Source of the DNA: a candidate division CPR3 bacterium GWF2_35_18
GTDB taxonomy: Bacteria > Patescibacteriota > CPR3 > GWF2-35-18
DNA: 64,000 nucleotides
Assembly: GCA_001771135.1 (NCBI GenBank)
Contig: MESW01000002.1
Location: 5,315 to 69,314, forward strand
Direction of reading: 5' to 3'
The notes beneath the pieces were generated by a model, which saw only the letters and a program-made list of their open reading frames with translations, made no database searches and was not told the origin of the DNA. Position numbers and translations under genes: made by a program. Shown here in pieces: positions 17,628 through 64,000 of this stretch (position 1 is its first letter; each line of letters opens with the position of its first letter).

Positions 17628-18221
17628 CTAGGTGTTTTCGAATGGATTCTGCCAACCAAGACCTTTGGCATTTAATGAATTTAAAATAGTATCGTAAGCC
17701 TTACGTGTAAGTCCTTGCTTTCCGTCAAGACAACCTTCAGCTTCTCCATCGGTAGCGGCCTCGAGCGTGTGGCAAATAGAAATTGCTTGATTTATGGGTA
17801 GGTGAAGAGTGATTATTTGACCGAAGAATTTTTCGATGTCAGCGGGATTTGAGTAATGCTCATCTTTCAGAGCTAGGTACAAAATCGCGGAACCCGTTTC
17901 GTCGCTCCAGAGAACAATCTCCAACCGAAAATCGTTCCGTCCAGATTCGTTTGTGAAAACCGCGATTCTAGTTGTGTATCCAGTTTTGCGAACGACATCA
18001 AATGCTTCACGTACGACTTGATTGAAAACCATCATCGTAAAATCGTGAATTCCGATGTAGTCGTCGGCGGCTGGGGTGCCGCAAAAGAGTTGGAAGACAA
18101 CCTGACCATGCTCAGTATAGACCGGCAAGAAGTTGCCTTTGATTCCACTTGTTCGCAATCCGTGCATGCCCAGAATTTCTTGGGCTTTAGTTAAAAGGAT
18201 GGTTTTAGGTTTTGTGTTCAT
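17628..18221 (-). CDS. Hypothetical protein (197 aa; 212 aa if the upstream ATG at 18266 is used) in GC-rich island 1
   Basis: GGAGGA RBS before the ATG at 18221. GC-rich codon usage. No recognisable motif. Confidence 0.55.
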   Translation of the reverse strand: MNTKPKTILLTKAQEILGMHGLRTSGIKGNFLPVYTEHGQVVFQLFCGTPAADDYIGIHDFTMMVFNQVVREAFDVVRKTGYTTRIAVFTNESGRNDFRLEIVLWSDETGSAILYLALKDEHYSNPADIEKFFGQIITLHLPINQAISICHTLEAATDGEAEGCLDGKQGLTRKAYDTILNSLNAKGLGWQNPFENT

Positions 18222-18623
18222 AGGTCCTCCTCGAACCTGTCCTGCTTCCTCGGCAGGAGTGAACATTTGAATGGTTGGTTGAATTGAATTGGTTGGTGTT
18301 AAACGAACGAATTCTCGAATTTTTCGATAGACCTTCCTTTCTTTTTCTTTGATTTTGGATAGGCGAGCTTGTGAGCTCGAATCTTTTTGGCTTTATGCCA
18401 ATGGGATTAGTGAAGGAAGAAGAGTAATTTCTTTCCTCGCTATTCCCATTGGGAAAAGCCATTTTCAAGGCAATAACCTTGATGCATTATGCTTCAGTTT
18501 TTAAAGAACAATGATGATTTTTACCACTAAAAAATAAATGGAAAAACCACAAATAATGGCGGGAAGTATATCATATATTGATGTGAATATCAAAACTATG
18601 GGATTGAAGTTGGAATTCTGAAA

Positions 18624-45827: not shown

Positions 45828-45984
45828 GTAAGTTATTATATCCGAACTACTTTGATTTGTAACTGAAGATATTGTTATTTTGGAAAACAGTTATATATAC
45901 GTTATTTATTGACTTCTGAAAAAATAGTTGATACTTTTAATATGGTTTGAAATTTAATATTCTTTTTTCAAAAGGAGCCCCATT

Positions 45985-48900
45985 ATGAAGCTGCCTTCTT
46001 TTTCCAGAATCTCTCTTCGGAGATTATTTTCAGTTATCAGTATTTCATCATTAATAATTGGGACTCTATATTTTGGTAGTGGTCAAAGTAAAGCAGCTTC
46101 CACAATTTCTATTGTTTCTTCTTCAGCGACTAAAGGGGCAACAGTTAATTATGAAATTACGTTAACCTCATCGGTTACTATTCCACAGTTCTCGTATTTG
46201 AATATCTCACTGCGTGGTAATGGTCCTATGGAAGAAGGTTACGCCGCAGATTTCAGCTCTGCAATAATGACCTCTTTTTCTCCAAACGGAAAAGGTGAAT
46301 TTGATGATCAAAATTCACAAAGTGGAAATGTTGGAATAATTATTACTCAAGAGATTACTGCAAACACCGAAATTACCATTAATCTTTCTAATGTGAAAAA
46401 TCCAACTCAATCAGGACTCTATACTCCGGTTTTTGATGTGAACAATCAAGAGAATAAACTTCTTGAAGTTATGGGGCAACCACTTGTAATCGGTAATCTA
46501 AAAGTCCAAGGAAAAATCGAAGATCCTCTTGGTAATCCGGCTGCATATACAGGTTTAGGGTTAACAAATGAAACAAGTAATTACCAGGGAAATACAGGAG
46601 AAGATGGTTCTTTTGGATTTTTTGATATTCCAGCGGGAAATTATCAGCTACAGATTTATCTAGGGCCAGGAAGTCAATATATCTCTCCAGATCCTCAAGA
46701 AATTACGGTGGGTAACGGAGTAACTAATGTCGGAATTATTGCACTTGTTTCTCCTAGTAAACTTGTAACAGGTAAAGTTACTTATCCAGATGGTTCTCCA
46801 GTGACAACTGCTTCTGTAAATGCAAACCGACGTGGTGCTCCAGGGTGGTATGGATCAAATACTAATGCACAAGGTAATTTTAGCCTAGGTCTTCCTGGAG
46901 GCGAATTTGAAATAATGCTTAATCCTCAGTGGGGTCCAGAAGGACAACTTTCTGTTGATTGGGCTTATATGGGTAGACCAGTTACAATAGCTTTTGCCAA
47001 TGATACTATTTCTGAAACAAAATCAGGGGTAAATTTTCAAGTAGTAAATGCTTCTTCGGTTGTAAAGGGAAAAGTGGTTGATCCTGATGGAGTAGCTGTA
47101 TCTCAAGGTGGGGTAGATGTTCGTAATAAAGAAGGTCAAGGTAGCTCCGGTGGCTTTAACAATCAAGGTGTTTTTAGTATCAACGTTCCTGCAGGTAAAT
47201 ATAATATAAATGTTTTTGCAAATGATCAAAGCTTAGCTGTGCCTCCGATGGAATCATTTACAGTTGCTGAAGATCAAACCAAAGATTTAGGAACAATTAC
47301 TCTGGTTAGAAAAACTGCACATATAAAAGGAAAAGTCGTAGATGAAGATAATCAGGGAATTGCTGAAGTACAAATTAATGCTTGGCAATCGAGCACTGGT
47401 GGTGGATGGGGAAATACTCAGACAAATGGACAAGGAACATTTGATCTTTTAGTCTCGAGTGGTACGTGGGAAATAAATGCCATGCCTACTCCTGATCAGG
47501 ATTATGCTATGGCAGGTGGTCCTCCTACTAGAATAACTTTAGGAACAACAGATACCGTTACCGGTGTCAACTTCCATTTAATAACGGCTGACGCTACCAT
47601 TATTGGACAAGTTGTCGATAGTAATAATCAATTATTGGGGAATATCTATGGTTACGCTGAAGCAAGAAGTGCCTCTAAAGAAGAGATGCCAATGCCTGGG
47701 ATGGGAAGTTCTATTCAAAATGGTCAATTTACTCTCAAAGTTCCGGCTGGTACATATGAAGTGAGTGCGATGTTTGAACCGGGATCTCCATATACTTCCT
47801 TAAGTAGTGAAATGGTTACTGTTGCTTCCCAAGAAACTGAAAACGTTTTAGTCGTAGTACGAGAAGACGATGCTACTATTTCCGGATTTGTTTATGACGA
47901 AGAAGGAAATAAAATCACTGGTCAAAGAATAGATGTTTTTGGTTTTAATGATGAGAACTCTCAAAAGATGACGATGGTTGATGAAGAAACAGGGGGATAC
48001 ACTTTGGGTGTTCTTGGTGGATCAACTTGGTTTTTAGGTGTATATATTGATTCACAATCTGGATATGTAATGGTTCCACCAGATAATAATAAAATTACGC
48101 TTGAAGTTGGTGATACCGCAACTAAAGATTTTACTTTACTCACTGCCAATGCAACTCTTTCTGGAACTGTTTTGGATCCTGACGGAAATCCACTTCCAAA
48201 TGTATATGTTTTTATTGATTCAAAAGCAATTGATGATGGGACTGTATTAGGAGCGAGTAGTGTTCGGAGTGGAGAACCAGTTGGCGGTCCAGGTGATGTT
48301 TTAGGAGTTAATGACCATGTTGGAGGACCTGGAGATAATGGTGATGAGGGACCGGGAGTTCATTTTGGAGATCTTACTCGTTCAGACGGGACTTTTATAA
48401 TCTCTATTCCAGCGGGTACTTATGGTCTTGGATCTGGTGCTCCTTCCTCACTAGGATTTATCTCTCCAGGAATTCAAAAAGTCACAATTGAAAAAGATGA
48501 GGAAATTACTGATTTGGTTTTACAATACAAGGAATCGGATGCTCAAATTACAGGTTCAGTTTATTTAAATGGAGAAAAATCTTCCGCTTTTGTTTGGGCC
48601 TGGTCAGAATCAGGTGGTTTCTCTGGTAACTTTACATCAAGCGGGGATTTTACTTTAAATGTTACTCAAGGTGATATATGGCATATTGGTGCTGATTTTG
48701 ATACCAGCGAGCATTTTTACCGTTCAGATGAATATATTGTAGAGGTTGACTCAGAAATAGAAACTCAGGATCTTGTGTTACAAGAAGCTTCGTATACTAT
48801 GCCAGCATCAATTTCTCAGACCTTTGATGCTTCTACTCCCAAGGTTCTTACTTTGGATAATGGAATGACGATCACTATTCCAGCAGGAGCGTTGGCAACT

Positions 48901-49638
48901 GAAGGAAATGTAACTGTAACTGTAACTCCAACAGCAAGATTAGCAAAACAAAAATCTGCTAAACCCCTTGCCTTTGGATATGAACTTAAAGCTTATAATT
49001 CTTCCGGTCAAGAAATAACAACTGCTTTTAACTCAAGCGTTAATATTGTGATGCCTTATACTGAAGAGATGTTGGCAGAGATGGGTATTACCGAAGATGA
49101 TCTATCCGGTGCTTATTGGGATGATACTTCAACCTTATGGCAAGGAATTGAAAGCTATGTTGTTGATCAAGATAATAACAGAATTACTTTAACTGTTGAT
49201 CACTTCACAAGTTTTGCTTTGGTGACTGGAGCCTCTGATACTATCCCAGCAGCAGCGCCAACATCTGTTACAGTAACTGATCCTGAAACTGGTGGAGTGT
49301 TAAACATCGCTTGGGTTAATCCCATAGACACTGACTTTGAGGATATTAGAGTTTATCGCTCTACGGTTTTAGGAACGATTGGTGATTTGGTTACCAACAT
49401 TACCGATAGCAATACAAGTTATTCTGATACAAGTTTAACCAACGGAACAACATACTATTACACTGTTCGTTCTGTTGATGCTGCAGGAAACGAATCGTAT
49501 AACACGGATCAGTATTCAGGTGTTCCAACTCAAGCGCTAACAGAACTTCCAGAAACTGGATTAAGTATGCTAGTTCTAAAAGATTTGATCACAAAGTTAG
49601 TAAATATTATCTGGAATTTAGTTGGATTTGTCTTTTAA
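45985..49638 (+). CDS. Giant (1217 aa) cell-surface protein with repeated CarboxypepD_reg-like beta-sandwich domains, an FN3-like domain and a C-terminal LPXTG sortase sorting signal
   Basis: AAAGGAG RBS. Signal peptide. Repeats of GKV.DPDG...VPAG.Y.. motifs. The C-terminus is LPETG followed by a hydrophobic tail. Confidence 0.75.
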   Translation: MKLPSFSRISLRRLFSVISISSLIIGTLYFGSGQSKAASTISIVSSSATKGATVNYEITLTSSVTIPQFSYLNISLRGNGPMEEGYAADFSSAIMTSFSPNGKGEFDDQNSQSGNVGIIITQEITANTEITINLSNVKNPTQSGLYTPVFDVNNQENKLLEVMGQPLVIGNLKVQGKIEDPLGNPAAYTGLGLTNETSNYQGNTGEDGSFGFFDIPAGNYQLQIYLGPGSQYISPDPQEITVGNGVTNVGIIALVSPSKLVTGKVTYPDGSPVTTASVNANRRGAPGWYGSNTNAQGNFSLGLPGGEFEIMLNPQWGPEGQLSVDWAYMGRPVTIAFANDTISETKSGVNFQVVNASSVVKGKVVDPDGVAVSQGGVDVRNKEGQGSSGGFNNQGVFSINVPAGKYNINVFANDQSLAVPPMESFTVAEDQTKDLGTITLVRKTAHIKGKVVDEDNQGIAEVQINAWQSSTGGGWGNTQTNGQGTFDLLVSSGTWEINAMPTPDQDYAMAGGPPTRITLGTTDTVTGVNFHLITADATIIGQVVDSNNQLLGNIYGYAEARSASKEEMPMPGMGSSIQNGQFTLKVPAGTYEVSAMFEPGSPYTSLSSEMVTVASQETENVLVVVREDDATISGFVYDEEGNKITGQRIDVFGFNDENSQKMTMVDEETGGYTLGVLGGSTWFLGVYIDSQSGYVMVPPDNNKITLEVGDTATKDFTLLTANATLSGTVLDPDGNPLPNVYVFIDSKAIDDGTVLGASSVRSGEPVGGPGDVLGVNDHVGGPGDNGDEGPGVHFGDLTRSDGTFIISIPAGTYGLGSGAPSSLGFISPGIQKVTIEKDEEITDLVLQYKESDAQITGSVYLNGEKSSAFVWAWSESGGFSGNFTSSGDFTLNVTQGDIWHIGADFDTSEHFYRSDEYIVEVDSEIETQDLVLQEASYTMPASISQTFDASTPKVLTLDNGMTITIPAGALATEGNVTVTVTPTARLAKQKSAKPLAFGYELKAYNSSGQEITTAFNSSVNIVMPYTEEMLAEMGITEDDLSGAYWDDTSTLWQGIESYVVDQDNNRITLTVDHFTSFALVTGASDTIPAAAPTSVTVTDPETGGVLNIAWVNPIDTDFEDIRVYRSTVLGTIGDLVTNITDSNTSYSDTSLTNGTTYYYTVRSVDAAGNESYNTDQYSGVPTQALTELPETGLSMLVLKDLITKLVNIIWNLVGFVF

Positions 49639-52246: not shown

Positions 52247-52963
52247 TTATTCATTGACTAGATTTTGATTATTTTTCCATCGTTTTTCAAACTCTTCTAA
52301 GATTAAGGCTTTTTCAAGTTGATAATTCCCAATTTTTGTTCGCGTGAGCTTGGAAACATAAGCTCCGCAATTCAGTTTTTGGCCGAGATCATGAATCAAG
52401 GATCGGATGTAAGTTCCCTTTGAACAAAAAACTCGAATTTTAGCTTTTGGTTCGTTTTTCTGTGTTTTTTCTCTAAATTCCAGTAATTCTATCTCAAATA
52501 TATTTATTGTACGTTTTGGAAGGGTTTTGAGGTCTATTTTTTCTTCCCGAGCTTTTTTGTATAATCTTTGTCCATTTACTTTGATAGCGGAAAATGGGGG
52601 AACTGTTTGTTCTTGTTGACCGACAAAATCGACAAGTACTTTTAGGAGTTTGGTCTTATTTAGGGTTTCTATTTTTTCTTGTTCACATCTATGAACAGTC
52701 TTTCCTTCTTTGTCGTACGTATCTGTTTCGGTTCCAAATGTTGCTTCAACAATGTATTCCTTGTTTAGTCCCATGAATTCATCTTGTTTTTTGCATGCTT
52801 TTCCGATTAGAACGATAAGTAATCCTTCTGCAATAGGGTCTAGTGTCCCAGTGTGACCTATCTTTTTTATTCCCGTGATTTTTCTTAATTCCGCAACAAT
52901 ACGGAATGAAGTTGGTCCTACGGGTTTGTGTATAAGTATAGGAGGATATTCTTCTTGATTCAT
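52247..52963 (-). CDS. truB: tRNA pseudouridine(55) synthase TruB
   Basis: GHTGTLDPIAEGLL (the GHxGTLDPxAxGxL catalytic Asp motif). Confidence 0.88.
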   Translation of the reverse strand: MNQEEYPPILIHKPVGPTSFRIVAELRKITGIKKIGHTGTLDPIAEGLLIVLIGKACKKQDEFMGLNKEYIVEATFGTETDTYDKEGKTVHRCEQEKIETLNKTKLLKVLVDFVGQQEQTVPPFSAIKVNGQRLYKKAREEKIDLKTLPKRTINIFEIELLEFREKTQKNEPKAKIRVFCSKGTYIRSLIHDLGQKLNCGAYVSKLTRTKIGNYQLEKALILEEFEKRWKNNQNLVNE

Positions 52964-53548
52964 GTTCGAATTGTAGGAGATTAGATCATAAAAGTCAAAA
53001 AAGTGGAGACAATTTGATTTTTGGGTGATATCAAACTATGGGTTACTATGTGGTTATTGTCACAGCAGTAACATTAATATGTTTAATATAGGACATAAAT
53101 ATAATAAAAATATGGATATTGATTGTTATATAAGGGTAAAACTGTATTTATTGGTAATTATTGCACTTCGTTTGTACTATTATGGGTCTTGACAAATATA
53201 TTTGAATGTGGTAAGGTAATATTGTCCTTTCTAAAAAGGCAATCGTTCATCTCCTAAATTGGGGGGCTGACAAGGTTAATTGGGACGCCGTATGTAGCAA
53301 CAAATGGTGCCGCGATTAGCCCTGATAGCCCCTCAATTGCGTTTCTATAGTAATTTTTCAAAAACTAGAATCCCCCGGAATAGAATATTCTAGAAGTATC
53401 TATCAGCTTTATAGTGTAATTAGTAGGCCTATAAATATTCTGTGTAATTAATTAGGGTATTTTATATTTCCCTTATATATAAATGTATGATTTAAATATA
53501 CTAAAATTTATAGTAAAGTTATGGTATTAAATGTATATCCTATAGTGC

Positions 53549-53577
53549 TTGACAAATACTTAAAAACATGATATACT
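53549..53577 (+). promoter_or_regulatory. Consensus sigma70 promoter P2 (TTGACA-17 nt-TATACT)
   Basis: -35 at 53549-53554, a 17-nt spacer, -10 at 53572-53577. Confidence 0.65.
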
Positions 53578-53583
53578 ATTTTT

Positions 53584-53660
53584 GTTAAGTTGGAGAGAGA
53601 AGAATATATTCCATTTTTTTAAAAGCTCTCTGAATCGATAAGAAGAAGGAGTTTTTTTTG
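53584..53660 (+). ncRNA. Candidate small RNA 1 (about 77 nt): the 5' end reads GUUAAGUUGGAGAGAG, followed by a hairpin and a terminator
   Basis: Starts about 7 nt after the -10 of P2 and ends at the T8 run at 53652-53659. No ATG or RBS-coupled ORF. Paralogous to candidate sRNA 2. Confidence 0.45.
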
Positions 53661-53779
53661 CACTTAAAATATTAGAAAAAATACATTTAAAGATTAGTAG
53701 GTAATCCGAAGTGGAGGAGAGACTCTCCAACAAACAAACTATTTCTCCTCTGCTTCATATTATCTATTAACCCATAGTA

Positions 53780-53808
53780 TTGACATTTATTAAAAATTAT
53801 GCTATACT
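53780..53808 (+). promoter_or_regulatory. Consensus sigma70 promoter P3 (TTGACA-17 nt-TATACT)
   Basis: -35 at 53780-53785 and -10 at 53803-53808. Confidence 0.65.
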
Positions 53809-53814
53809 ATTTAT

Positions 53815-53890
53815 AGTTTGTTGGAGAGAGCAGTAAAAGCAGGAATCTTACTGTATAAAAGAGAGCTCGCCAACGCGCGAGCTTTTTTTG
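53815..53890 (+). ncRNA. Candidate small RNA 2 (about 76 nt): 5' GUUUGUUGGAGAGAG, an internal CAGUAA/UUACUG hairpin, and a terminator GAGCUCGC-CAAC-GCGCGAGCU + U7
   Basis: Promoter-to-terminator unit. No ORF. Shares its 5' motif with sRNA 1. The reverse complement of that motif also occurs at about 53712-53726. Confidence 0.45.
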
Positions 53891-53950
53891 TCGCACCTTA
53901 TAACAAATTACTGAAGTCATGGTTAAAGAATTTATGAGAGGCTTATAACT

Positions 53951-53979
53951 TTGACAAATTATATTATTTGGAGTATATA
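53951..53979 (+). promoter_or_regulatory. Consensus sigma70 promoter P4 (TTGACA-17 nt-TATATA)
   Basis: -35 at 53951-53956 and -10 at 53974-53979. A structured region follows (TTGGGGCT...AGCCCCAA hairpin). Confidence 0.55.
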
Positions 53980-54113
53980 GAAATGTATTTCCCCAAAATA
54001 CTGGAAATATATATGTTGGGGCTTAAAAATTATATAGCCCCAAGCAATGAGAGAGGTGGAATAGCTATCTAAGTAGCTTATTTATAGCTTCTCATATCCA
54101 AAAGCGGTTTTTT

Positions 54114-54171
54114 GTTATTCTGAGCGGTATGTGAAAGATCATTAGAAATTTCTCACTGCGTTCAGAATGAC
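54114..54171. repeat. Palindromic repeat family, copy A (GTTATTCTGAGCG ... CGTTCAGAATGAC)
   Basis: Arms pair with G-U wobbles if transcribed from the + strand. Sits just upstream of the GC-rich block that starts at about 54.4 kb. Confidence 0.6.
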
Positions 54172-54958
54172 AGAAAATAAAAGAATCGGAACTACGAAAA
54201 AGAATTGAAACGACAGAAATAGATGTGGAAGAAGAGGTACGTGTTTAGAACTTTAAAAAAAGAATATTTCGTTAATCTCCGGAAATAATCCGGAAAATTT
54301 TAAATTCTTCTTAATGAAGGAAGATTGCAGTTACTGCAAGGAAGTAAACTGGAAGCTATTGATTTAGTATCTAGTTCGCTTTCTTGCAGGAAGTTGAGGT
54401 CTGTTAGGAAAATCTTTCCGCTTTCATAAGTCGCAAGCGCAGAAAGGATCTGCAGATTTTCAAACCAGAATACTCAGACGGTTGGGTAATAGTCAGGTTG
54501 ACCCTGTGAATCCAAACGAAGTACTGCAAAAAGTGTCGTTCCCGGTTTTTCGGGCCTGAAGGGTTGTACCCCGTAGGCGCCTGGGTAGGACCCAATTATA
54601 GGTCCGCCTAACCGGAAAAAGACCTCTTCCTTTGGAAGGGGCATATCGTGCCTGTCAGGTAATAGGCCTTGCAGTTTTTGTAGAATTTATCCGAAGCTGC
54701 TTTCAGAGCAGTCTTAGATAAGCGGATAGAGGAAGCAAAAATAAAGAGGCTGAAAAACTTGAAGGGCGAAATTGGACAATTTCTTTCAACTCCCCAAACC
54801 GAAAGGGTTAGTAACTTGAGAGGGAACGGTCTCCATTTGTTTTTCTGGTTCCAGTCCAGCTGCCGAATACAGTAGGCAAAAGATGAAAGGACTCAGACTG
54901 AACTTTCAAGAGTGAAACACTCTCTTAGGCAAGGGGTAGTATTCAAGGAGAATGATAT

Positions 54959-56341
54959 ATGGAGACTAAAACCTCCACCCAGAGCCGCAAGGGGCTCTAT
55001 AATATCTTTGCGTCCGTTATCGTAGCCCTGATGCTCGTTGCCGTTTTCTTCGGCTTCGTTGGCACTGCGGCCGCTCAGGAGTCCGTTCCTGACTACCAGC
55101 CCGTGGTTGACCCTTATCCGGTCACCGTGGGCGTTACCACCGCGATCAGCCTCAGCCCGGCACCGACCGCGACGGCCGACATCCACTGGACGATCAACGC
55201 CTCTGATGGTAGTCTCGTGCTGGATACCACCGAGTTCACGGTGACGCATGTGTTCACCAATGCCGGCGATTACACCGTTGGTGTGACGATCAGCGACACG
55301 AATGGCGTGTATGTGAATGCCTGGTTGCTGAACGTGGAAGAGCCGGTTTTGACACCTGCTGCTGCCTTGACCAACCTGTTGACCGCTGTGATGGCGCCTG
55401 CAAGCCCTGATAAAGCCGCTGATGTAGCTGAAGCTGTTGCCGATGTTCAGCGCGCTCTGGGCGTGGTTGTTCGCGGCGCCGTCCAGTCCAATGAAGGCGG
55501 TTCGATCGAACTTCGCCCTGTCCAGCCGATTGCGGCAATGAGTGAAGAAGCTCGCGCTTTGGCTATGGACACTGCTGCTGGCACCGATCTGCACTTCGCA
55601 TGGGGTGCTGGATGGCACAATCATCAGGCCGATTTGGGCGCTGGGACTCAACTGTTGAGCGGCGTCTTCTTCGACTCTGACGATCCGGCCTATTTCGGCA
55701 CCACCGAACCGATCTCTGGCGGCCTCTGGGTGTCTTCGATGTACACCCCCAACGTTAGCCTGGAAACGGCCGAATATACCACGACCTTCACTTCTACCCA
55801 GTGGGTAGACAGCGATGGCAACGGTATGTTTGACCTTCTGGCGGTTGGTAGCCCCTGGGATGGTTCTGTCGTCACCATGAGCCTCGATTACGAAGGCGTA
55901 TACACCGAGACCTGGAGCGTCCAGATCGGTATGGAACCGAAACTGATTAGCACCGAAGGCACCAGCCCTGCACCGGCGACCGCCGATGCTTTCCGCACCA
56001 GCGCTGCTGCTGATACATACCCATTCGTACCCGGTCAGGGTTGGGATGTAGCTGCCAATACGGCTTACACGGACACCGTCTTCTACGGCGCTTACTTCGG
56101 TGGCGCTGATTTTGGCGGCGTCTGCAATGACCACTGCGTGGTTAGCTATGCTGGGCGGAGCTATGAATCGACCGATGCTGATGGCAACGGGACGTACGAT
56201 TTCTTCCTGCCCGGCGCTGGTTCTGCCGAAATCGAAGGCCCTGGGGCTTGGGAATTCACCGTCACCGATGACGATGGCAATACCGAGACCTGGATCTTCA
56301 TCCTGGGCGCCACTCCTCAGATCGTCCCCGCTGGCGAGTAA
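54959..56341 (+). CDS. GC-rich (about 58 % GC) secreted protein with Ig/PKD-like and DxDGNG calcium-binding-like repeats
   Basis: AAGGAGA RBS. Signal anchor with an AAAQE cleavage-like site. DSDGNGMFD and DADGNGTYD motifs. Third codon positions are GC-rich, unlike neighbouring genes. Confidence 0.65.
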   Translation: METKTSTQSRKGLYNIFASVIVALMLVAVFFGFVGTAAAQESVPDYQPVVDPYPVTVGVTTAISLSPAPTATADIHWTINASDGSLVLDTTEFTVTHVFTNAGDYTVGVTISDTNGVYVNAWLLNVEEPVLTPAAALTNLLTAVMAPASPDKAADVAEAVADVQRALGVVVRGAVQSNEGGSIELRPVQPIAAMSEEARALAMDTAAGTDLHFAWGAGWHNHQADLGAGTQLLSGVFFDSDDPAYFGTTEPISGGLWVSSMYTPNVSLETAEYTTTFTSTQWVDSDGNGMFDLLAVGSPWDGSVVTMSLDYEGVYTETWSVQIGMEPKLISTEGTSPAPATADAFRTSAAADTYPFVPGQGWDVAANTAYTDTVFYGAYFGGADFGGVCNDHCVVSYAGRSYESTDADGNGTYDFFLPGAGSAEIEGPGAWEFTVTDDDGNTETWIFILGATPQIVPAGE

Positions 56342-56480: not shown

Positions 56481-56890
56481 TTGTCTTTTCATCTTAGTCT
56501 GGTTTTATCTTGACCAGTCCCAAAGCCTATCATTAAGTTGATAGATCCTCAGGAAAACAAGATAAGTGAAGGATTTTTCCTTCCTGGAGTTATAGAGAAA
56601 ATAAAGAATCTATAGCAAGACTCCAAGATGAGGCAATTCCTCATCGAGCTAGTTTGCATGAAAATGCAGTTAAAATTGGTTTGGTCATTGTGAAGGTCTG
56701 TTGTTTTTGTATTGAAGATACATTTATTGTCACCCTAAAAGTGACCTGTCCTTATCATCTTCAAAACACCAACCAACAAAACAACACAATCATCAACCCA
56801 ATCTAGCTTCCCTCTTGTGCTTAGCACCTGATGAAGGCTTGGGAAGATCAAGCCGAAAGAGGAAAGTTAAATTATATATATTAAATCAAA

Positions 56891-56934: not shown

Positions 56935-57038
56935 TGTCATGCTGAACGAAGTGAAGCATCTAGGTCTAAAGACCGCAGTATTGGTAACTGTGCGTTCTGC
57001 CTTTGGCAGAACTAGATCCTTCGTTAAACTCAGGATGA
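56935..57038. repeat. Palindromic repeat family, copy B (GTCATGCTGAACGAAG ... CTTCGTTAAACTCAGGATGAC) with two internal small hairpins
   Basis: Read directly. Sits just downstream of the GC-rich block. Its right arm abuts or overlaps the 3' end of the GIY-YIG gene. Confidence 0.6.
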
Positions 57039-57341
57039 CATAAATAAATTATTAAAATTAGGATTGATAGTCTTTATAAGGCTAATCTTTTTCTCCCTTT
57101 TCCAACCTTTGATTTTCTTTTCTACTTCTATTGCTTCTGTAGGAGAATTAAATTCTTCCATCCAAATTAATTTATATAGTTTGTATTTCTTAGAGAAGGA
57201 ACTTTTTATTATACCTTTTGTATGTTCTTCAATTCTTCTTTCTAAATCATTGGTTATTCCGGTATATAACACAGAATTTGTATGATTAGTAATAATATAA
57301 ACATACCAACTGAAGTTATTCATATTATTTAAGAATATCAT
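57030..57341 (-). CDS. Stand-alone GIY-YIG nuclease domain protein
   Basis: WYVYIITNHTNSVLYTGITNDLERRIEEH (GIY...YIG...R...E motifs). The true start may be the internal ATG at 57323 (MNNFSWYVYII). Confidence 0.72.
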   Translation of the reverse strand: MIFLNNMNNFSWYVYIITNHTNSVLYTGITNDLERRIEEHTKGIIKSSFSKKYKLYKLIWMEEFNSPTEAIEVEKKIKGWKREKKISLIKTINPNFNNLFMSS

Positions 57342-60373: not shown

Positions 60374-61687
60374 TTATGGCGCGAGATTAACGTGCCAGCG
60401 CTCGATGATATTTCCGACTTTGATCTCTACCGTCCAGGGGGCGGTGCTTGAGCAACCGGCATCAAAGATGCCGTTGCCATCATCGTCGGTTGCCGTAAGG
60501 CTTTCATCATTGCAAGTGATTTGCATATCGGCGTTATCCACGCTGATTGACAGAAATTCGACATTCAGCGCGAACAAGCCAAAGAGGAAGTCTTCCTGTT
60601 CTGGATTGCTCCAGCCCTGACCGGTGGTGAGAGTGATCGTCCCGCGATCGATGACCGTGGGAGGAGTGTAGTCTTTGTATGCCAGGGGGATAAATATCTG
60701 GTACGTTGTGGGCGCTGGTGAGATGACCGTGACGGTCATGGTGTCACTGACAACATTTCCTGCGACGTTGGTGGCAGCAACCTCAATAACTTTTTCACCC
60801 GGAGTTTCCCAGACGAGGGCTTGTTGTACGCCTAACGACAGTCCGTAAAACTCAATCTCTCCGAGGTCAGTGGCCGTGAAGTGGTAGGTGACGTTGTTAG
60901 TTGCGGTGACGTTCGTCATCGCTGTTAACGTGATTTCTTCACCAATATATCCATTGAGAGGGCCTGCAATTTGCACCCATGTGACGGGCACTATCTGGTC
61001 TGAAATGATTATTTGATTGTAATCCTGGAGACGATACTCAGCCCAAGCAATCATTCCGACGATTTCGGTTTGGCCAGTTTCAGTGAGCACCATAGTGTCT
61101 GTCAGAGTGAAAACTTCATTCGGGATCAGAATTCGATCTCCGCATTGTCCCCACGGAGCCCGTAAGGATACTGTTGCCGTCATGTTGCCGATGTTAGTGA
61201 TGCTGAACTCAACATCGAAGGGTTGATTCACCTGGACTTCTGCAGGGGAATTCACGTACACAGTGAAGAAGGCGTCGTTGCGAACGATTTTAGCCGGAGT
61301 TTCGTTAGTGACGGTGAATGTCCATGTTTCGGTGATGATTCCGTCAGTAATGATGTAGAGATCGTTGATAGGACTCAAGAAAGCCTGGTCGTTATCCATG
61401 CTGAGTGTCCAGGTATAGCCATCAGAGCGGGTTACGATTCCTTCACCATAGGCGTGGATTCCGTCTTGATTGTCCGCATAGAGATGGTTAATTGGGCTGC
61501 CGGCTTCAAAACCTTCGTTTAAAAGATCCATCTCAGGGTTCAGGATGGCTTCTACGGTGATAGTATTTACAGTTTGTGCAGCAGTCGCATTCTGCGTATC
61601 GGCAAAGCTCAATAGAGCAATGACAGCTACGAGCGCGATAAGGATAGAAATTGCCGGGGTTAAGCGGCGGATAGCATAAGCGTTCAC
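60374..61687 (-). CDS. GC-rich secreted protein (437 aa) with a C-terminal DDDGNG Ca-binding-like module; paralogous in part to 54959..56341
   Basis: GTG start with an AAGGAGA RBS 7 nt upstream. Signal peptide ending ATAAQT. The C-terminus (TATDDDGNGIFD...WTVEIKVG...ERWHVNL) resembles TDADGNGTYDFF...WEFTVTDDDGNTETWIFIL of the 460-aa protein. Confidence 0.62.
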   Translation of the reverse strand: MNAYAIRRLTPAISILIALVAVIALLSFADTQNATAAQTVNTITVEAILNPEMDLLNEGFEAGSPINHLYADNQDGIHAYGEGIVTRSDGYTWTLSMDNDQAFLSPINDLYIITDGIITETWTFTVTNETPAKIVRNDAFFTVYVNSPAEVQVNQPFDVEFSITNIGNMTATVSLRAPWGQCGDRILIPNEVFTLTDTMVLTETGQTEIVGMIAWAEYRLQDYNQIIISDQIVPVTWVQIAGPLNGYIGEEITLTAMTNVTATNNVTYHFTATDLGEIEFYGLSLGVQQALVWETPGEKVIEVAATNVAGNVVSDTMTVTVISPAPTTYQIFIPLAYKDYTPPTVIDRGTITLTTGQGWSNPEQEDFLFGLFALNVEFLSISVDNADMQITCNDESLTATDDDGNGIFDAGCSSTAPWTVEIKVGNIIERWHVNLAP

Positions 61688-61999
61688 AGTTTTTCTCCTT
61701 CAGAAAAATTGTATCGGAATTTTTCCGCGAACCAATGGTTGGCGGATTGACTAATAGAGGAAAATAGTTGATTTTTAGCCTGAAGAGAAATAGTTCCTCT
61801 TACTTTACAAGGCTTTTTAGGTTGACTGCTTTTAAGCAGATTGATATTTGAACGCTTCGTGCAATACTCCACTAGGGCTTTCTTTGCGCTAGTGTTGCTC
61901 TTTGATTTAATTCCTAAATCCCAGGTTTCCAATCTGAGAGAGGATCAAAGAGGATTATTTCTTGCAGGAAGAAGTCTTGGGGACAAGGCATTTTCATAT

Positions 62000-62097
62000 G
62001 TCATCCTGAACGAATATTAAGGATCTAGAAACTATTAGTTTCGTAAGAATTCGCTTTGCTAGATTCTTCATTAACATTCAGAATGACAAAAGGGAAA
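62000..62097. repeat. Palindromic repeat family, copy C (GTCATCCTGAACGAATATTAAGGATCTAG ... CTAGATTCTTCATTAACATTCAGAATGAC)
   Basis: Read directly. Has a central AAACTATTAGTTT mini-hairpin. Lies 300 bp beyond the 5' end of the GC-rich minus-strand gene. Confidence 0.6.
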
Positions 62098-62976
62098 ACT
62101 ATTTATTCCCATGATTTCTCCCTGCAAGTATTTGTCTCAATCCTTTTTAAAGTACAAAATCTAAATGTCTTCTTCCGTTTCTTTATTTTCTTACTTTGTT
62201 TTTCTGTAGTTTCGATGGTTTTTAGCTAGAAGAAGGGGAGAGATTTTGTCTGGAGAGATTTTGATCTCTCCACTTCTTTTTAACCAAAAAACCGCCTCTG
62301 GATGGGAGACGGTCAGTGTACCAAAATACTACTTTAAAGCAGTATTTTAAGTCAATTGTCTCTCTCCAGACATATTCAGTTTGTTATTATGTATAATAGC
62401 ACAAATTAAGGGAAAAGTCAATACTATAGGATTAAATATGTGTTTTCTTTAAATTTGGAGAAAGATTAAGAAAAGGGGAAGAGGAGAGGGAAGAGCGAAA
62501 GAAATAAAAGTGGAAACAAGGATAGTTTCAAAAGAGCCAAGGCTCTCCTTTCTATGCCGGACCGTGGTGGTCTTTTGGCTTTTGAAAGTAGCTCCTTGAG
62601 TCTACACTTTTTATCTTTCAGTCTTCCCGTCCACCAAATTGGTGAACTACCGTTTGTATATATTTTAGTTGGATACGGTGGTCCAACCTCCAGAGGGGGG
62701 AGGGAATGGCAAGCTGATCAGGCACACATGGATTTTGTCCACGTTCGCGCGACTGTCATTCTCCTCCCCACTTGGAGTCAAAAATTGTGAGGTGTTTGTG
62801 CCACCAGAATTATCTACAGTCTCCTCAGGCTGTAAAGTTCAAAAGTGACACGAATCCCTATTCGTCCAACAATTTCTTAGACGAATTCGTCTTTCTCTTT
62901 TATCTTCTTTTTCTACCGAGCGGTCCGAGCAGGGTAAATCAATCAGAGAGAAAGGTCTCCCAATCACCTCAAAGCT

Positions 62977-63390
62977 TTACGGCCTTGGCCCGATAGTGGG
63001 CAGAGCAGGTGTTTGGGTGGGGGTGGGGGTCGGTGCGCCAATCAGGGTGTTGCCTGCAGCAGCAACTGTAGCTTTAGCGTTTGTGACGCCATTTGCTGCT
63101 TGTGTTGCCGTCGCCTGAGCGTTGACCAGATTATTGGCCGCTTGTGTAGCAGCATTCTGCTTGTTCTGCAGATTCTGGATAGCGCTTGCCTGATTAGCTT
63201 CAGCGTCTTTGAGTGCGTCAACTGCACCATAAACGCCAGCCGAATCATCTGTCGCGGGGGTCGCGGTCTCTTTGACGGTTATTTCTACTGGAATCCAGTC
63301 CCATGTTTCTGTGGGAAGGTAGTAGTATAACGCCGTCACGAGGACGACTAACCCGAGCAATGCCAATGCATAAAGCCCAAGTTTCTTCAC
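62977..63390 (-). CDS. GC-rich small membrane-anchored Ala/Thr/Gln/Asn-rich protein (137 aa)
   Basis: GTG start with an AAAGGAGA RBS. N-terminal TM helix. Low-complexity AANNLVNAQATATQAANG repeats. Pro/Thr-rich C-terminus. Confidence 0.5.
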   Translation of the reverse strand: MKKLGLYALALLGLVVLVTALYYYLPTETWDWIPVEITVKETATPATDDSAGVYGAVDALKDAEANQASAIQNLQNKQNAATQAANNLVNAQATATQAANGVTNAKATVAAAGNTLIGAPTPTPTQTPALPTIGPRP

Positions 63391-63825
63391 GTTATTCTCC
63401 TTTCTCCATTGTGACGCCTTTAATGCGCGTCAGAATTTGAATTTACTTCCTCTCGGACCAGAGGAAGACGGGGGTTTTCCCCTTGATTTTCCGGTAAGGG
63501 AGAAAGGTTGTAAAAGCAACCCTTTTTCCTTACCAGAAAGAGAAAGGAGGAGGAATTTTTCCATCTTTTGATGGTAAATAATAAGGAACTTCTCCATAAA
63601 GTCGAAGTATAGTGTTGTTATTCTTCGAGCGAAGTCGAGAAGTACCATGATAATAGGTGCTAGATTGTTTTTCCTTTTCAGGCTTAAAGGAGAGGAGAAT
63701 CTGTGATTCGTTGGAGTGAATTTTAAACTCTCCTCACCTTGAGTCAAAAAAGGAATATTTTACTATTATAAATATGGGGAAAAGACTTTAAGACAAGCTT
63801 ATTATCTCTCTCCATATACAAAAAA

Positions 63826-63860
63826 AGCTCTCATTCGTCAGAGAGCTCCATCAAGCTTTT
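63826..63860 (-). terminator. Rho-independent terminator on the minus strand
   Basis: Reverse complement reads AGCTCTC-TGACGAAT-GAGAGCT followed by TTTTTTTTG. Confidence 0.55.
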
Positions 63861-64000
63861 ATATATATTTCTCCAACGAACAGGGCAGTATAGCATAAAA
63901 TGAAAGGAATGTCAATACTATAGGGTAAATGATTATCCCACTCTTGTGGTGACAAAAGAATCAGTTAAAATTGACACTAAATTACGTCATCAAGGAATTC

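Follow-up and report, generated by a model that had tools for sequence, protein, structure and literature searches.

Paired seed and hairpin-loop motifs suggest a composite RNA control region upstream of a PKD-domain gene in a CPR3 bacterium

What does a 2-kb spacer without genes do in the chromosome of a bacterium of the Candidate Phyla Radiation (CPR)? The question is raised by positions 52964-54958 of a low-GC (~34%) window, by which we mean the whole stretch of 64 kb analyzed here (64,000 nucleotides (nt) of contig MESW01000002.1), from CPR3 bacterium GWF2_35_18 of the Rifle groundwater metagenomes. The spacer lies between truB (52247-52963, minus strand) and a plus-strand gene for a PKD-domain protein of 460 amino acids (aa). 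A first-pass annotation had described the region as free of open reading frames (ORFs), and this description holds: the longest ORF with an ATG, GTG or TTG start has 63 aa, and the longest stop-to-stop run, 94 codons, is on the strand opposite the GC-rich gene. The spacer, presented as rare for this window, is not the only one of its kind: a comparable 1.3-kb non-coding leader lies at 61688-62976. The features described below suggest a composite region of RNA control, made up of a predicted small RNA (sRNA) beside truB, a series of short units that we call U modules, and a structured 5' untranslated region (UTR) of the PKD gene.

The U modules are built around a recurrent type of strong promoter. 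Four plus-strand sigma70-type promoters, P1 to P4, had been proposed, each with TTGACA and a 17-nt spacer, and all four are in the sequence. P2 (53549-53577) and P3 (53780-53808) read TTGACA-17-TATACT, match the consensus at 11 of 12 positions, and both have the TG of an extended -10. The pattern TTGACA-N14-TGnTATACT, allowing two mismatches, occurs six times in the window against 0.75 expected, and three of the six strict matches to TTGACW-N14-TGnTAnnnW on the two strands of the 64 kb are inside the spacer. P2, P3 and P4 head modules U1, U2 and U5 in tandem. The units behind P2 and P3 are paralogous, as previously noted, and form a 54-nt direct repeat with 76% identity. A whole-window repeat search recovered the P3 promoter region twice more, at 63887-63936 and 62396-62439 of the minus strand, which led to two further modules, U4 (~63.9 kb) and U3 (~62.4 kb). 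Both share one build. CCYATAG stands 2-3 nt before the -35 of a TTGAC(A/T)-17-TGnTAT(ACT/TAT) promoter; a purine-rich seed with TGGAGA in it comes next, then a canonical intrinsic terminator and, directly downstream, a long hairpin. The seed, UUGGAGAGAG or a variant of it, lies within the first 10-25 nt of the U transcripts. The long hairpins, H1 to H4, are numbered separately from the U modules (Table 1).

The module hairpins are perfect stems of ~11 to 27 bp, and terminators and hairpins fold better than shuffled sequences, which serve as the reference for all fold z-scores given here (z -2.4 to -6.5). Strong terminators had been assigned to both the P2 and the P3 transcripts. For P3 the assignment is correct: the U2 terminator reaches -23.9 kcal/mol (z = -2.4) and is the sole strong one among P2-P4. 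For P2 it is not, because the T8 run of U1 has no stable stem before it (z = +0.47). The U5 leader (z = -2.8), which aligns with positions 231-353 of a related locus (L062), has a weak terminator with a T run at 54108-54113. U2, U3 and U4 each have their own promoter and intrinsic terminator and hold no ORF, as expected of sRNAs.

The loops of the long hairpins carry the complement of the seeds. The reverse complement of the 5' motif had been reported between the P2 and P3 units, and the match is exact. Over all 13 nt, CTCTCCAACAAAC (53723-53735) is reverse-complementary to 53816-53828, and as the loop of H1 it complements the U2 seed over 13 nt and the U1 seed over 9 nt. The complementarity of GGAGAGA and TCTCTCC pointed out near 62.3 kb recurs there as the seed of U3 and the loop of H3. 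Homologous loci were available from five related metagenomic populations. One relative is represented by L062 (PKD side), L080 (truB side) and L063 (the locus of its 437-aa gene), and its elements are marked here by a prime; L081, L084, L085 and L086 are truB-linked loci. In a blind search, the opening 35 nt of each transcript were set against the next ~400 nt or, for U2, which has H1 upstream, against the preceding 167 nt. The longest complement always fell in a hairpin loop on the same strand, ~100-250 nt away. Complements as long as those observed were found in 1 of 2000 shuffles for U2/H1 (13 nt) and for U3/H3 (12 nt), in 2 of 2000 for the L080 seed with H1' of L062 (11 nt), in 3 of 2000 for U3'/H3' of L063 (11 nt), and in 38 of 2000 for U4/H4 (10 nt); the 9-nt match of U1/H1 is weaker (188 of 2000). 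No further good complement of the U2 seed was found within the 64 kb, making the neighboring hairpin loop the sole target found. Duplex energies of whole RNAs (RNAduplex) did not discriminate, as they came from long forced duplexes and non-cognate pairs scored alike.

Comparison with the relatives indicates that the loops are retained as the stems change. At its PKD locus the relative has a U unit with seed GTTTGTTGGAGAGAG and a strong terminator, and its H1' has a stem different from that of H1 and a loop that retains CTCCAACAAAC. At L063 the U3' seed is ATTCTGGAGAG and the H3' loop is CTCTCCAGAAT; here too, the stem differs from that of H3 and the loop is retained. Between U3 and U3', two positions beside CUGGAGAG are changed on both sides in a compensatory manner. 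In L080 and L086, too, the U2-type seed GTTTGTTGGAGAG follows a promoter of this type, and the truB-linked loci L085 and L086 bear further U units. Compensatory stems and conserved U tracts mark the terminators of U2, U3, U4, U3', L062, L085 and L086. Seven seed/loop pairs were aligned on TGGAG/CTCCA. In this alignment 80.6% of the cells are paired, double-sided changes occur in 5 of the 14 pairs (8 cells), and the covariation score is 0.265 compared with 0.126 for shuffled pairs, none of 500 reaching the observed value; registers slid by 1-3 columns score no higher than 0.08. Thus, as judged from the aligned sequences, the predicted seed and loop co-vary across paralogs and orthologs. The first-pass annotation had expected targets carrying the complement of its 5' motif, GGAGAGAG/CTCTCC. 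The complementarity is borne out by orthologs and compensatory changes; a distant target is not, the best match being a nearby loop on the same strand. An RNA-level regulatory module of seed and loop is the reading that we prefer. Our confidence in an RNA-pairing module is moderate, our confidence in its exact regulatory logic is low, and as a general claim we consider the regulatory module about evenly poised between right and wrong.

How might such a module act? Folding covered each leader through its terminator stem, once with a free seed and once with a blocked one. In U1, U2, U3 and U4 the better fold, by 3.5-5.4 kcal/mol, has the free seed paired to the loop or 5' half of its own terminator; when the seed is blocked, the terminator fold returns. 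On the strength of these alternative folds we propose a seed-controlled attenuator whose seed may also be captured by the hairpin loop. Each seed would then have two alternative partners. On the nascent RNA, a free seed would pair with its own terminator and act as an antiterminator, and the polymerase would read on through the hairpin and the UTR into the gene. A captured seed would leave the terminator to form, and a short RNA would be released. The captor could be a hairpin loop that matches the seed on a transcript already made, acting in cis following read-through, or in trans; the tail of the P1 RNA and the 3' end of 16S rRNA, which bear CUCC, are other candidates by complementarity. Once released, short RNAs with a free seed, of which U2 is the clearest case, could bind to the loop in the hairpin of the full-length leader. 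Surface-protein mRNAs would in effect come under dosage or feedback control. In this scheme we infer transcription, the efficiency of termination and the direction of regulation. The specific logic of antiterminator and capture is a model to be held tentatively, with the greater probability on its being wrong in some part. It is somewhat less probable still that the modules are self-sensing attenuators, in which the hairpin loop of a finished leader would capture a nascent seed in trans, so that every surface-protein mRNA would hold down its own production by RNA-RNA recognition only.

Several observations weigh against the seed/loop module or against the proposed attenuator. The covariation alignment was anchored by hand, and its seven pairs come from paralogs and ~4 related populations, which means that the events are few and non-independent. 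U2, which is the best partner of H1 at the PKD locus, sits downstream of H1, and the strong U2 terminator stands between P2 and the PKD gene. The terminators of U1 and U5 are decayed. No complement of the seed was found in the loop of H2, and U5/H2 is thus a unit without a seed-loop match. A hicAB cassette lies within the L062 leader, so a single transcript may not span both the distal modules and the proximal UTR. The fold energies describe equilibrium and not co-transcriptional folding. In U3' of L063 and in the L086 unit the terminator forms whether the seed is free or blocked, and the antiterminator step is consequently not universal.

Of the rival explanations, the closest to the original proposal is that U1 and U2 are free-standing trans-acting sRNAs with distant mRNA targets, the nearby loop being incidental or one of many. 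U2 does have the classic build, with its own promoter, a single-stranded 5' seed, a small hairpin and a strong terminator; its seed is conserved in L080 and L086, and the target search was confined to the 64-kb window. However, the adjacent loop complement is present at every locus that has post-terminator sequence (four loci in three populations) and co-varies with the seed, the 64 kb hold no other good match, and the units always head the long leaders of one gene class. We therefore regard this explanation as unlikely. What survives of the tandem sRNA array is the existence of conserved, paralogous, ORF-less units; what does not is their free-standing nature, because they form the promoter-proximal part of long surface-gene leaders. 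Nor does the suggested likeness to type I toxin-antitoxin systems fit, as there is no conserved small ORF and the indels among orthologs are not multiples of three. It is equally unlikely, in our estimate, that the elements are mRNA-stabilizing leaders. STAB-SD elements and 5' hairpin stabilizers exist in bacteria, and the seed could act like the STAB-SD of Bacillus, with the hairpins as 5' stabilizers or RNase III sites and the pairing locking the 5' end, to protect very abundant surface-protein mRNAs. The seed resembles a Shine-Dalgarno (SD) sequence, GGAG being the SD of the three genes behind U/H leaders, the perfect stems of the hairpins would suit such a role, and the unusual GC content at third codon positions (GC3) of these genes, together with their shared 3' UTR elements, suggests selection on the mRNA itself. 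Stabilization leaves unexplained why conserved canonical terminators with compensatory stems lie between seed and hairpin, and why the strongly terminated U2 has no gene behind it.

Two further explanations were weighed. The units might be decaying duplicates that have no function today, a promoter-leader cassette having been copied in tandem so that U1, U2 and U5 are relics beside one working promoter. The degenerate terminators of U1 and U5, the degenerate seed of U5, and the lack of U2 at the corresponding place in L062 would be expected of relics. Decay is hard to reconcile with U2, whose promoter, seed and terminator are perfect and which has the best match to H1 (13/13), with the orthologous conservation of the P4 unit in L062, or with promoters matching at 11 of 12 positions, which are unlikely to last unselected in a spacer of 30% GC; we consider this reading improbable. 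Slightly more improbable is an invertible DNA switch, in which seed and complement would be the inverted repeats of a site-specific recombinase, whose flipping of the U3 and U4 terminators or of P3 would turn the surface-protein genes on and off by phase variation. Perfect inverted repeats of 10-13 bp do flank P3 and these terminators ahead of surface-protein genes, and repeats kept identical by recombination would mimic covariation. Against such a switch, all 17 assembled contigs of the population, which come from many samples, are 100% identical over 52900-55000 in a single orientation, 4-5 further contigs are collinear over U3 and U4, and contig ends do not coincide with the repeats. In addition, no Pfam recombinase domain was found in the scanned ORFs of at least 120 aa across the 64 kb, and the right-hand repeat is the loop of a hairpin kept by compensation, which inversion would destroy.

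Known RNA families and hidden coding sequence were also considered. Rfam 15 gave no match in the 64-kb window at gathering score, chance-level matches only (up to 27 bits) in 52800-55100 at E up to 10, and nothing in L062, L063 and L053 at E up to 0.1. ARAGORN and Rfam found no tRNA in the window, and ARAGORN found none in the CPR3 loci. A degraded protein-coding gene had been named as one outcome that would refute the RNA reading. In L080 and L084 a 136-aa gene follows the P1 RNA, and tblastn at E up to 10 found no trace of it in the spacer or the rest of the window; a pseudogene of this kind was rejected. Recoding of UGA (table 4) was rejected as well, as the longest open stretch it yields is only 147 codons and lies on the strand opposite the leader.

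Table 1. Coordinates of the predicted elements in and beyond the truB-PKD spacer (window positions).
Feature	Position	Strand	Details
P1 promoter	53189-53217	+	TTGACA-17-TGgTAAGGT; context TTATGGGTC-TTGACA conserved in L080, L081, L084, L085, L086
P1 RNA	53238-53341	+	~105 nt; invariant single-stranded 5' tail GGCAAUCGUUCAUCUCC; 82-nt hairpin 53257-53338
P2 promoter, module U1	53540-53577	+	CTATAGtgc-TTGACA-17-TGaTATACT
U1 leader RNA	53584-53660	+	seed GTTGGAGAGAG 53589-53599; internal partner CTCTCTGA 53626-53633; T8 run 53652-53659
H1 hairpin	53694-53770	+	~27 bp, z = -6.5; loop CTCTCCAACAAAC 53723-53735
P3 promoter, module U2	53772-53808	+	CCATAGta-TTGACA-17-TGcTATACT
U2 candidate sRNA	53815-53890	+	seed GTTTGTTGGAGAG 53816-53828; small hairpin 53839-53854; terminator 53858-53890
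P4 promoter, module U5	53951-53979	+	TTGACA-17-TATATA; ortholog L062 228-268, CCCTATAGatTTTGACA-17-TATGAC
U5 leader RNA	53986-54115	+	degenerate seed-like TGGAAATATATAT; hairpin TTGGGGCT/AGCCCCAA 54016-54043; GAGAGAGG 54049-54056
H2 long hairpin after U5	54107-54179	+	z = -6.1; L062 ortholog 525-605, z = -6.5, stem sequence differs
Structured 5' UTR of PKD-domain gene	54180-54958	+	near-invariant islands 54329-54395, 54543-54616, 54790-54835, 54895-54945
PKD-domain gene	54959-56341	+	460 aa; 58% GC, GC3 0.65; N-terminal transmembrane/signal segment
U3 + H3, ahead of 437-aa gene	62224-62429	-	promoter 62429-62393; terminator 62313-62285; z = -3.5 and -5.0
U3 seed TGTCTGGAGAGA	62372-62361	-	H3 62285-62224, loop TCTCTCCAGACA 62258-62247
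U4 + H4, ahead of 137-aa gene	63687-63923	-	promoter 63923-63887; terminator 63847-63820
U4 seed TTCGTTGGAG	63880-63871	-	H4 63740-63687 (z = -4.1), loop CTCCAACGAA 63716-63707

Downstream of the modules, a conserved non-coding leader of ~850 nt runs from 54107 to the PKD gene. It opens with H2, which is followed by a stretch paralogous to the leader of the 437-aa gene. In the relative, L062 has orthologs of the P4 unit and of H2 and a leader with near-identical islands. From 54303 these islands are ~95-100% identical to L062, compared with 66% for the alignment through the coding sequence, and the gaps between the two leaders have lengths that are not multiples of 3. The element at 54329-54395 contains compensatory pairs, and a third complementary segment with the same C/T substitution in the aligned sequences suggests that it can adopt two alternative helices. 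The 74-nt block at 54543-54616 (L062 1658-1728) is almost invariant (CCCGGTTTTCGGGCCT..GGGTTGTACCCCG.AGGCGCCTGGGTAGGACCC..GGTCCGCCTAACCGG). It folds into nested hairpins, is far better conserved than the coding sequence, has no Rfam match, and could be a ligand-binding or protein-binding element. The intergenic leaders of the relative also hold toxin-antitoxin cassettes of the hicAB and relB/yafQ-like types (L062 860-1380 and 3995-4472; L063 2101-2663). At the position of a second hicAB-like pair in L062, the window carries a GIY-YIG gene (57030-57341).

The genes behind the U/H leaders have features in common. In addition to the PKD gene, they comprise the 437-aa gene (60374-61687, minus strand) and the 137-aa gene (62977-63390, minus strand), both GC-rich and with N-terminal hydrophobic segments. 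The GC3 of the three genes is 0.51-0.65 compared with 0.21-0.31 in their neighbors. Orthologs keep a high GC3 of 0.56-0.78 (L062 2078-3439; L063 1070-1489 and 3762-4913; L085 2112-2597), so the raised value is a stable feature and not the mark of recent transfer. The PKD protein and the 437-aa protein have one homolog each among 5.8 billion proteins, both in Logan assembly SRR22388279. A fourth, GC-richer gene of 212 aa with no assigned family (17628-18266, minus strand) follows a similar promoter, CCCATAG-TTGATA-17-TGaTATACT at 18565-18601 (minus strand); its leader of ~300 nt has no GGAGAG seed, and its GC3 is less raised (0.43).

The PKD and 437-aa genes also have a 3' UTR element in common, AGCACCTGA(T/A)GA...GGCTTGGGAAG(A/T)TCAAGCCGAA, just ahead of their terminators (56823-56858 on the plus strand, ~60090-60010 on the minus strand, and ~795-870 in L063). 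Its CUGAUGA-stem-GAAA arrangement recalls a hammerhead ribozyme; the resemblance is superficial, with no match to the model at E up to 10. Assemblies of this population often break within or just after the PKD gene (55030, 55408, 55736, 56341), and in L001 (6612-8005) a single indel splits the gene into 292 aa and 159 aa. The breaks and the split gene suggest strain heterogeneity in the PKD gene.

The RNA predicted behind P1 is a different kind of element. It had been counted as part of the array, with a long-range stem. The stem is real in the sequence: AATTGGGGGGCT/AGCCCCTCAATT (53257-53268/53327-53338) closes the 82-nt hairpin at -48.9 kcal/mol (z = -4.9). Membership in the array is not, as P1 is separately and independently conserved. 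Its promoter and ~105-nt core, an invariant tail (G/A)GCAAUCGUUCAUCUC(C/U) followed by the long hairpin, adjoin truB in six species. Across these species the RNA has 34 pairs, 6 of them compensatory, with G-U pairs that suit the plus strand only, and the covariance model R1 gives 99-125 bits on the plus strand versus 37-49 bits on the minus strand. The gene downstream differs among species, which argues for an independent sRNA gene. On these comparative grounds P1 is an independent, conserved, structured predicted sRNA, distinct from the U modules. The apical part is the least conserved portion of the RNA. Because of this and the lack of an Rfam match, signal recognition particle RNA, 6S RNA and a tRNA-like RNA were rejected as identities. 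A small minus-strand ORF over the tail (53158-53250) was discarded because it is not conserved in L084 and L081.

The P1 tail at 53239-53254 (UCAUCUCC) is invariant and resembles an anti-SD sequence. Its L080 version, UCUCCAA, complements the U seed (UUGGAGA). The P1 RNA could, by complementarity, bind U seeds or SD regions. A complement of the complete tail occurs nowhere else in the window.

The kind of element proposed here is known from other bacteria, as attenuator-derived sRNAs and as loop-seed pairing; the arrangement is new. SreA and SreB of Listeria, rnTrpL of Sinorhizobium and EutX of Enterococcus are trans-acting sRNAs derived from attenuators or riboswitches. Like the U modules, they have a promoter-proximal leader with an intrinsic terminator and a possible antiterminator, and they release an RNA with a single-stranded pairing region. 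In contrast to them, the U modules have no known aptamer, leader peptide, T-box or Rfam match, their partner is the hairpin loop of their own downstream leader, and they form a tandem paralogous family before one gene class. Antisense control by kissing loops is exemplified by RNAI/RNAII of ColE1, CopA/CopT of R1, hok/sok and other type I toxin-antitoxin systems. There, as proposed for the present units, a short, strongly expressed and terminated RNA recognizes a sequence that a stable hairpin, part of the 5' leader of a longer transcript, displays in its loop. Kissing antisense RNAs are transcribed from the strand opposite their target and complement it fully, whereas the partners here are tandem, on the same strand, and share 9-13 nt; in addition, there is neither a toxin ORF nor a replicon. 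Long leaders precede S-layer genes, cry3A of Bacillus with its STAB-SD, and genes dependent on RfaH or LoaP. Such leaders resemble the present ones as long, structured and conserved 5' UTRs with SD-like elements and terminators, located ahead of abundant or atypical surface genes. Unlike the RfaH/LoaP leaders, those described here have no ops element, and we know of no counterpart to the seed/loop pair and the tandem short-RNA units in any of these long leaders.

Members of the CPR, or Patescibacteria, are mostly uncultured, and full-text literature searches for sRNAs and RNA-based regulation in these bacteria found nothing relevant. The region contributes non-coding elements with comparative support: a conserved predicted sRNA linked to truB, modules of seed and receptor hairpin, and extended UTRs rich in structure. 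They go with one class of genes, those for GC-rich surface proteins that are secreted or membrane-anchored and likely to be relevant to host attachment. The seed/loop addresses differ by locus (GUUUGUUGGAGAG, GUCUGGAGAGA, UUCGUUGGAG). If the module acts as proposed, at least three circuits would be kept apart in one small CPR genome, providing a compact, address-coded control of several genes by RNA only. The addresses, the element shared by the 3' UTRs and the elevated GC3 would then add up to a dedicated expression cassette for CPR3 surface proteins. The apparently empty spacers of streamlined genomes can thus be dense in RNA features that lie outside Rfam.

The distribution of the promoter type was followed in two scans. 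Searching genome contigs for the promoter with TGGAGA returned 44 loci (L018-L061), mostly from Clostridia. Clostridial tRNA promoters resemble those of the U modules in having ATAGT-n-TTGACA, an extended -10 (TGnTATAAT), and GGAGAG 5-35 nt downstream. A tRNA-Ser gene is present in at least 17 of the 44 loci, and where this was checked (e.g. L021, L022, L044) the gene starts at the matched GGAGA. In Clostridia GGAGAG is the 5' end of tRNA-Ser, whereas the CPR3 loci have no tRNA. The clostridial loci were rejected as homologs because they share the promoter type and carry tRNA-Ser genes instead; the matches show that the CPR3 units use a promoter of the stable-RNA type. Of the 44 loci only L053, from Berkelbacteria, looked related, and it was too short to be used. 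A metagenome scan with the stricter CCTATAG (L064-L079) gave eight distinct non-self loci with a TGGAGA 5' hairpin, the search pattern itself having imposed both features. These loci were not used as family members because an unbiased test of complementarity was non-significant. In these groundwater contigs, TGGAGA is the left arm of the 5' hairpin, as in L069 (TTGGAGAAAT..ATTTCTCCA followed by a T run), and four of the eight precede small genes for CxxC zinc-ribbon proteins. Within the window, the only other strict match to TTGACW-N14-TGnTAnnnW is located at 45909-45937, directly upstream of the gene for a 1217-aa CarboxypepD_reg surface protein (45985-49638), and this gene is followed by a sortase gene.

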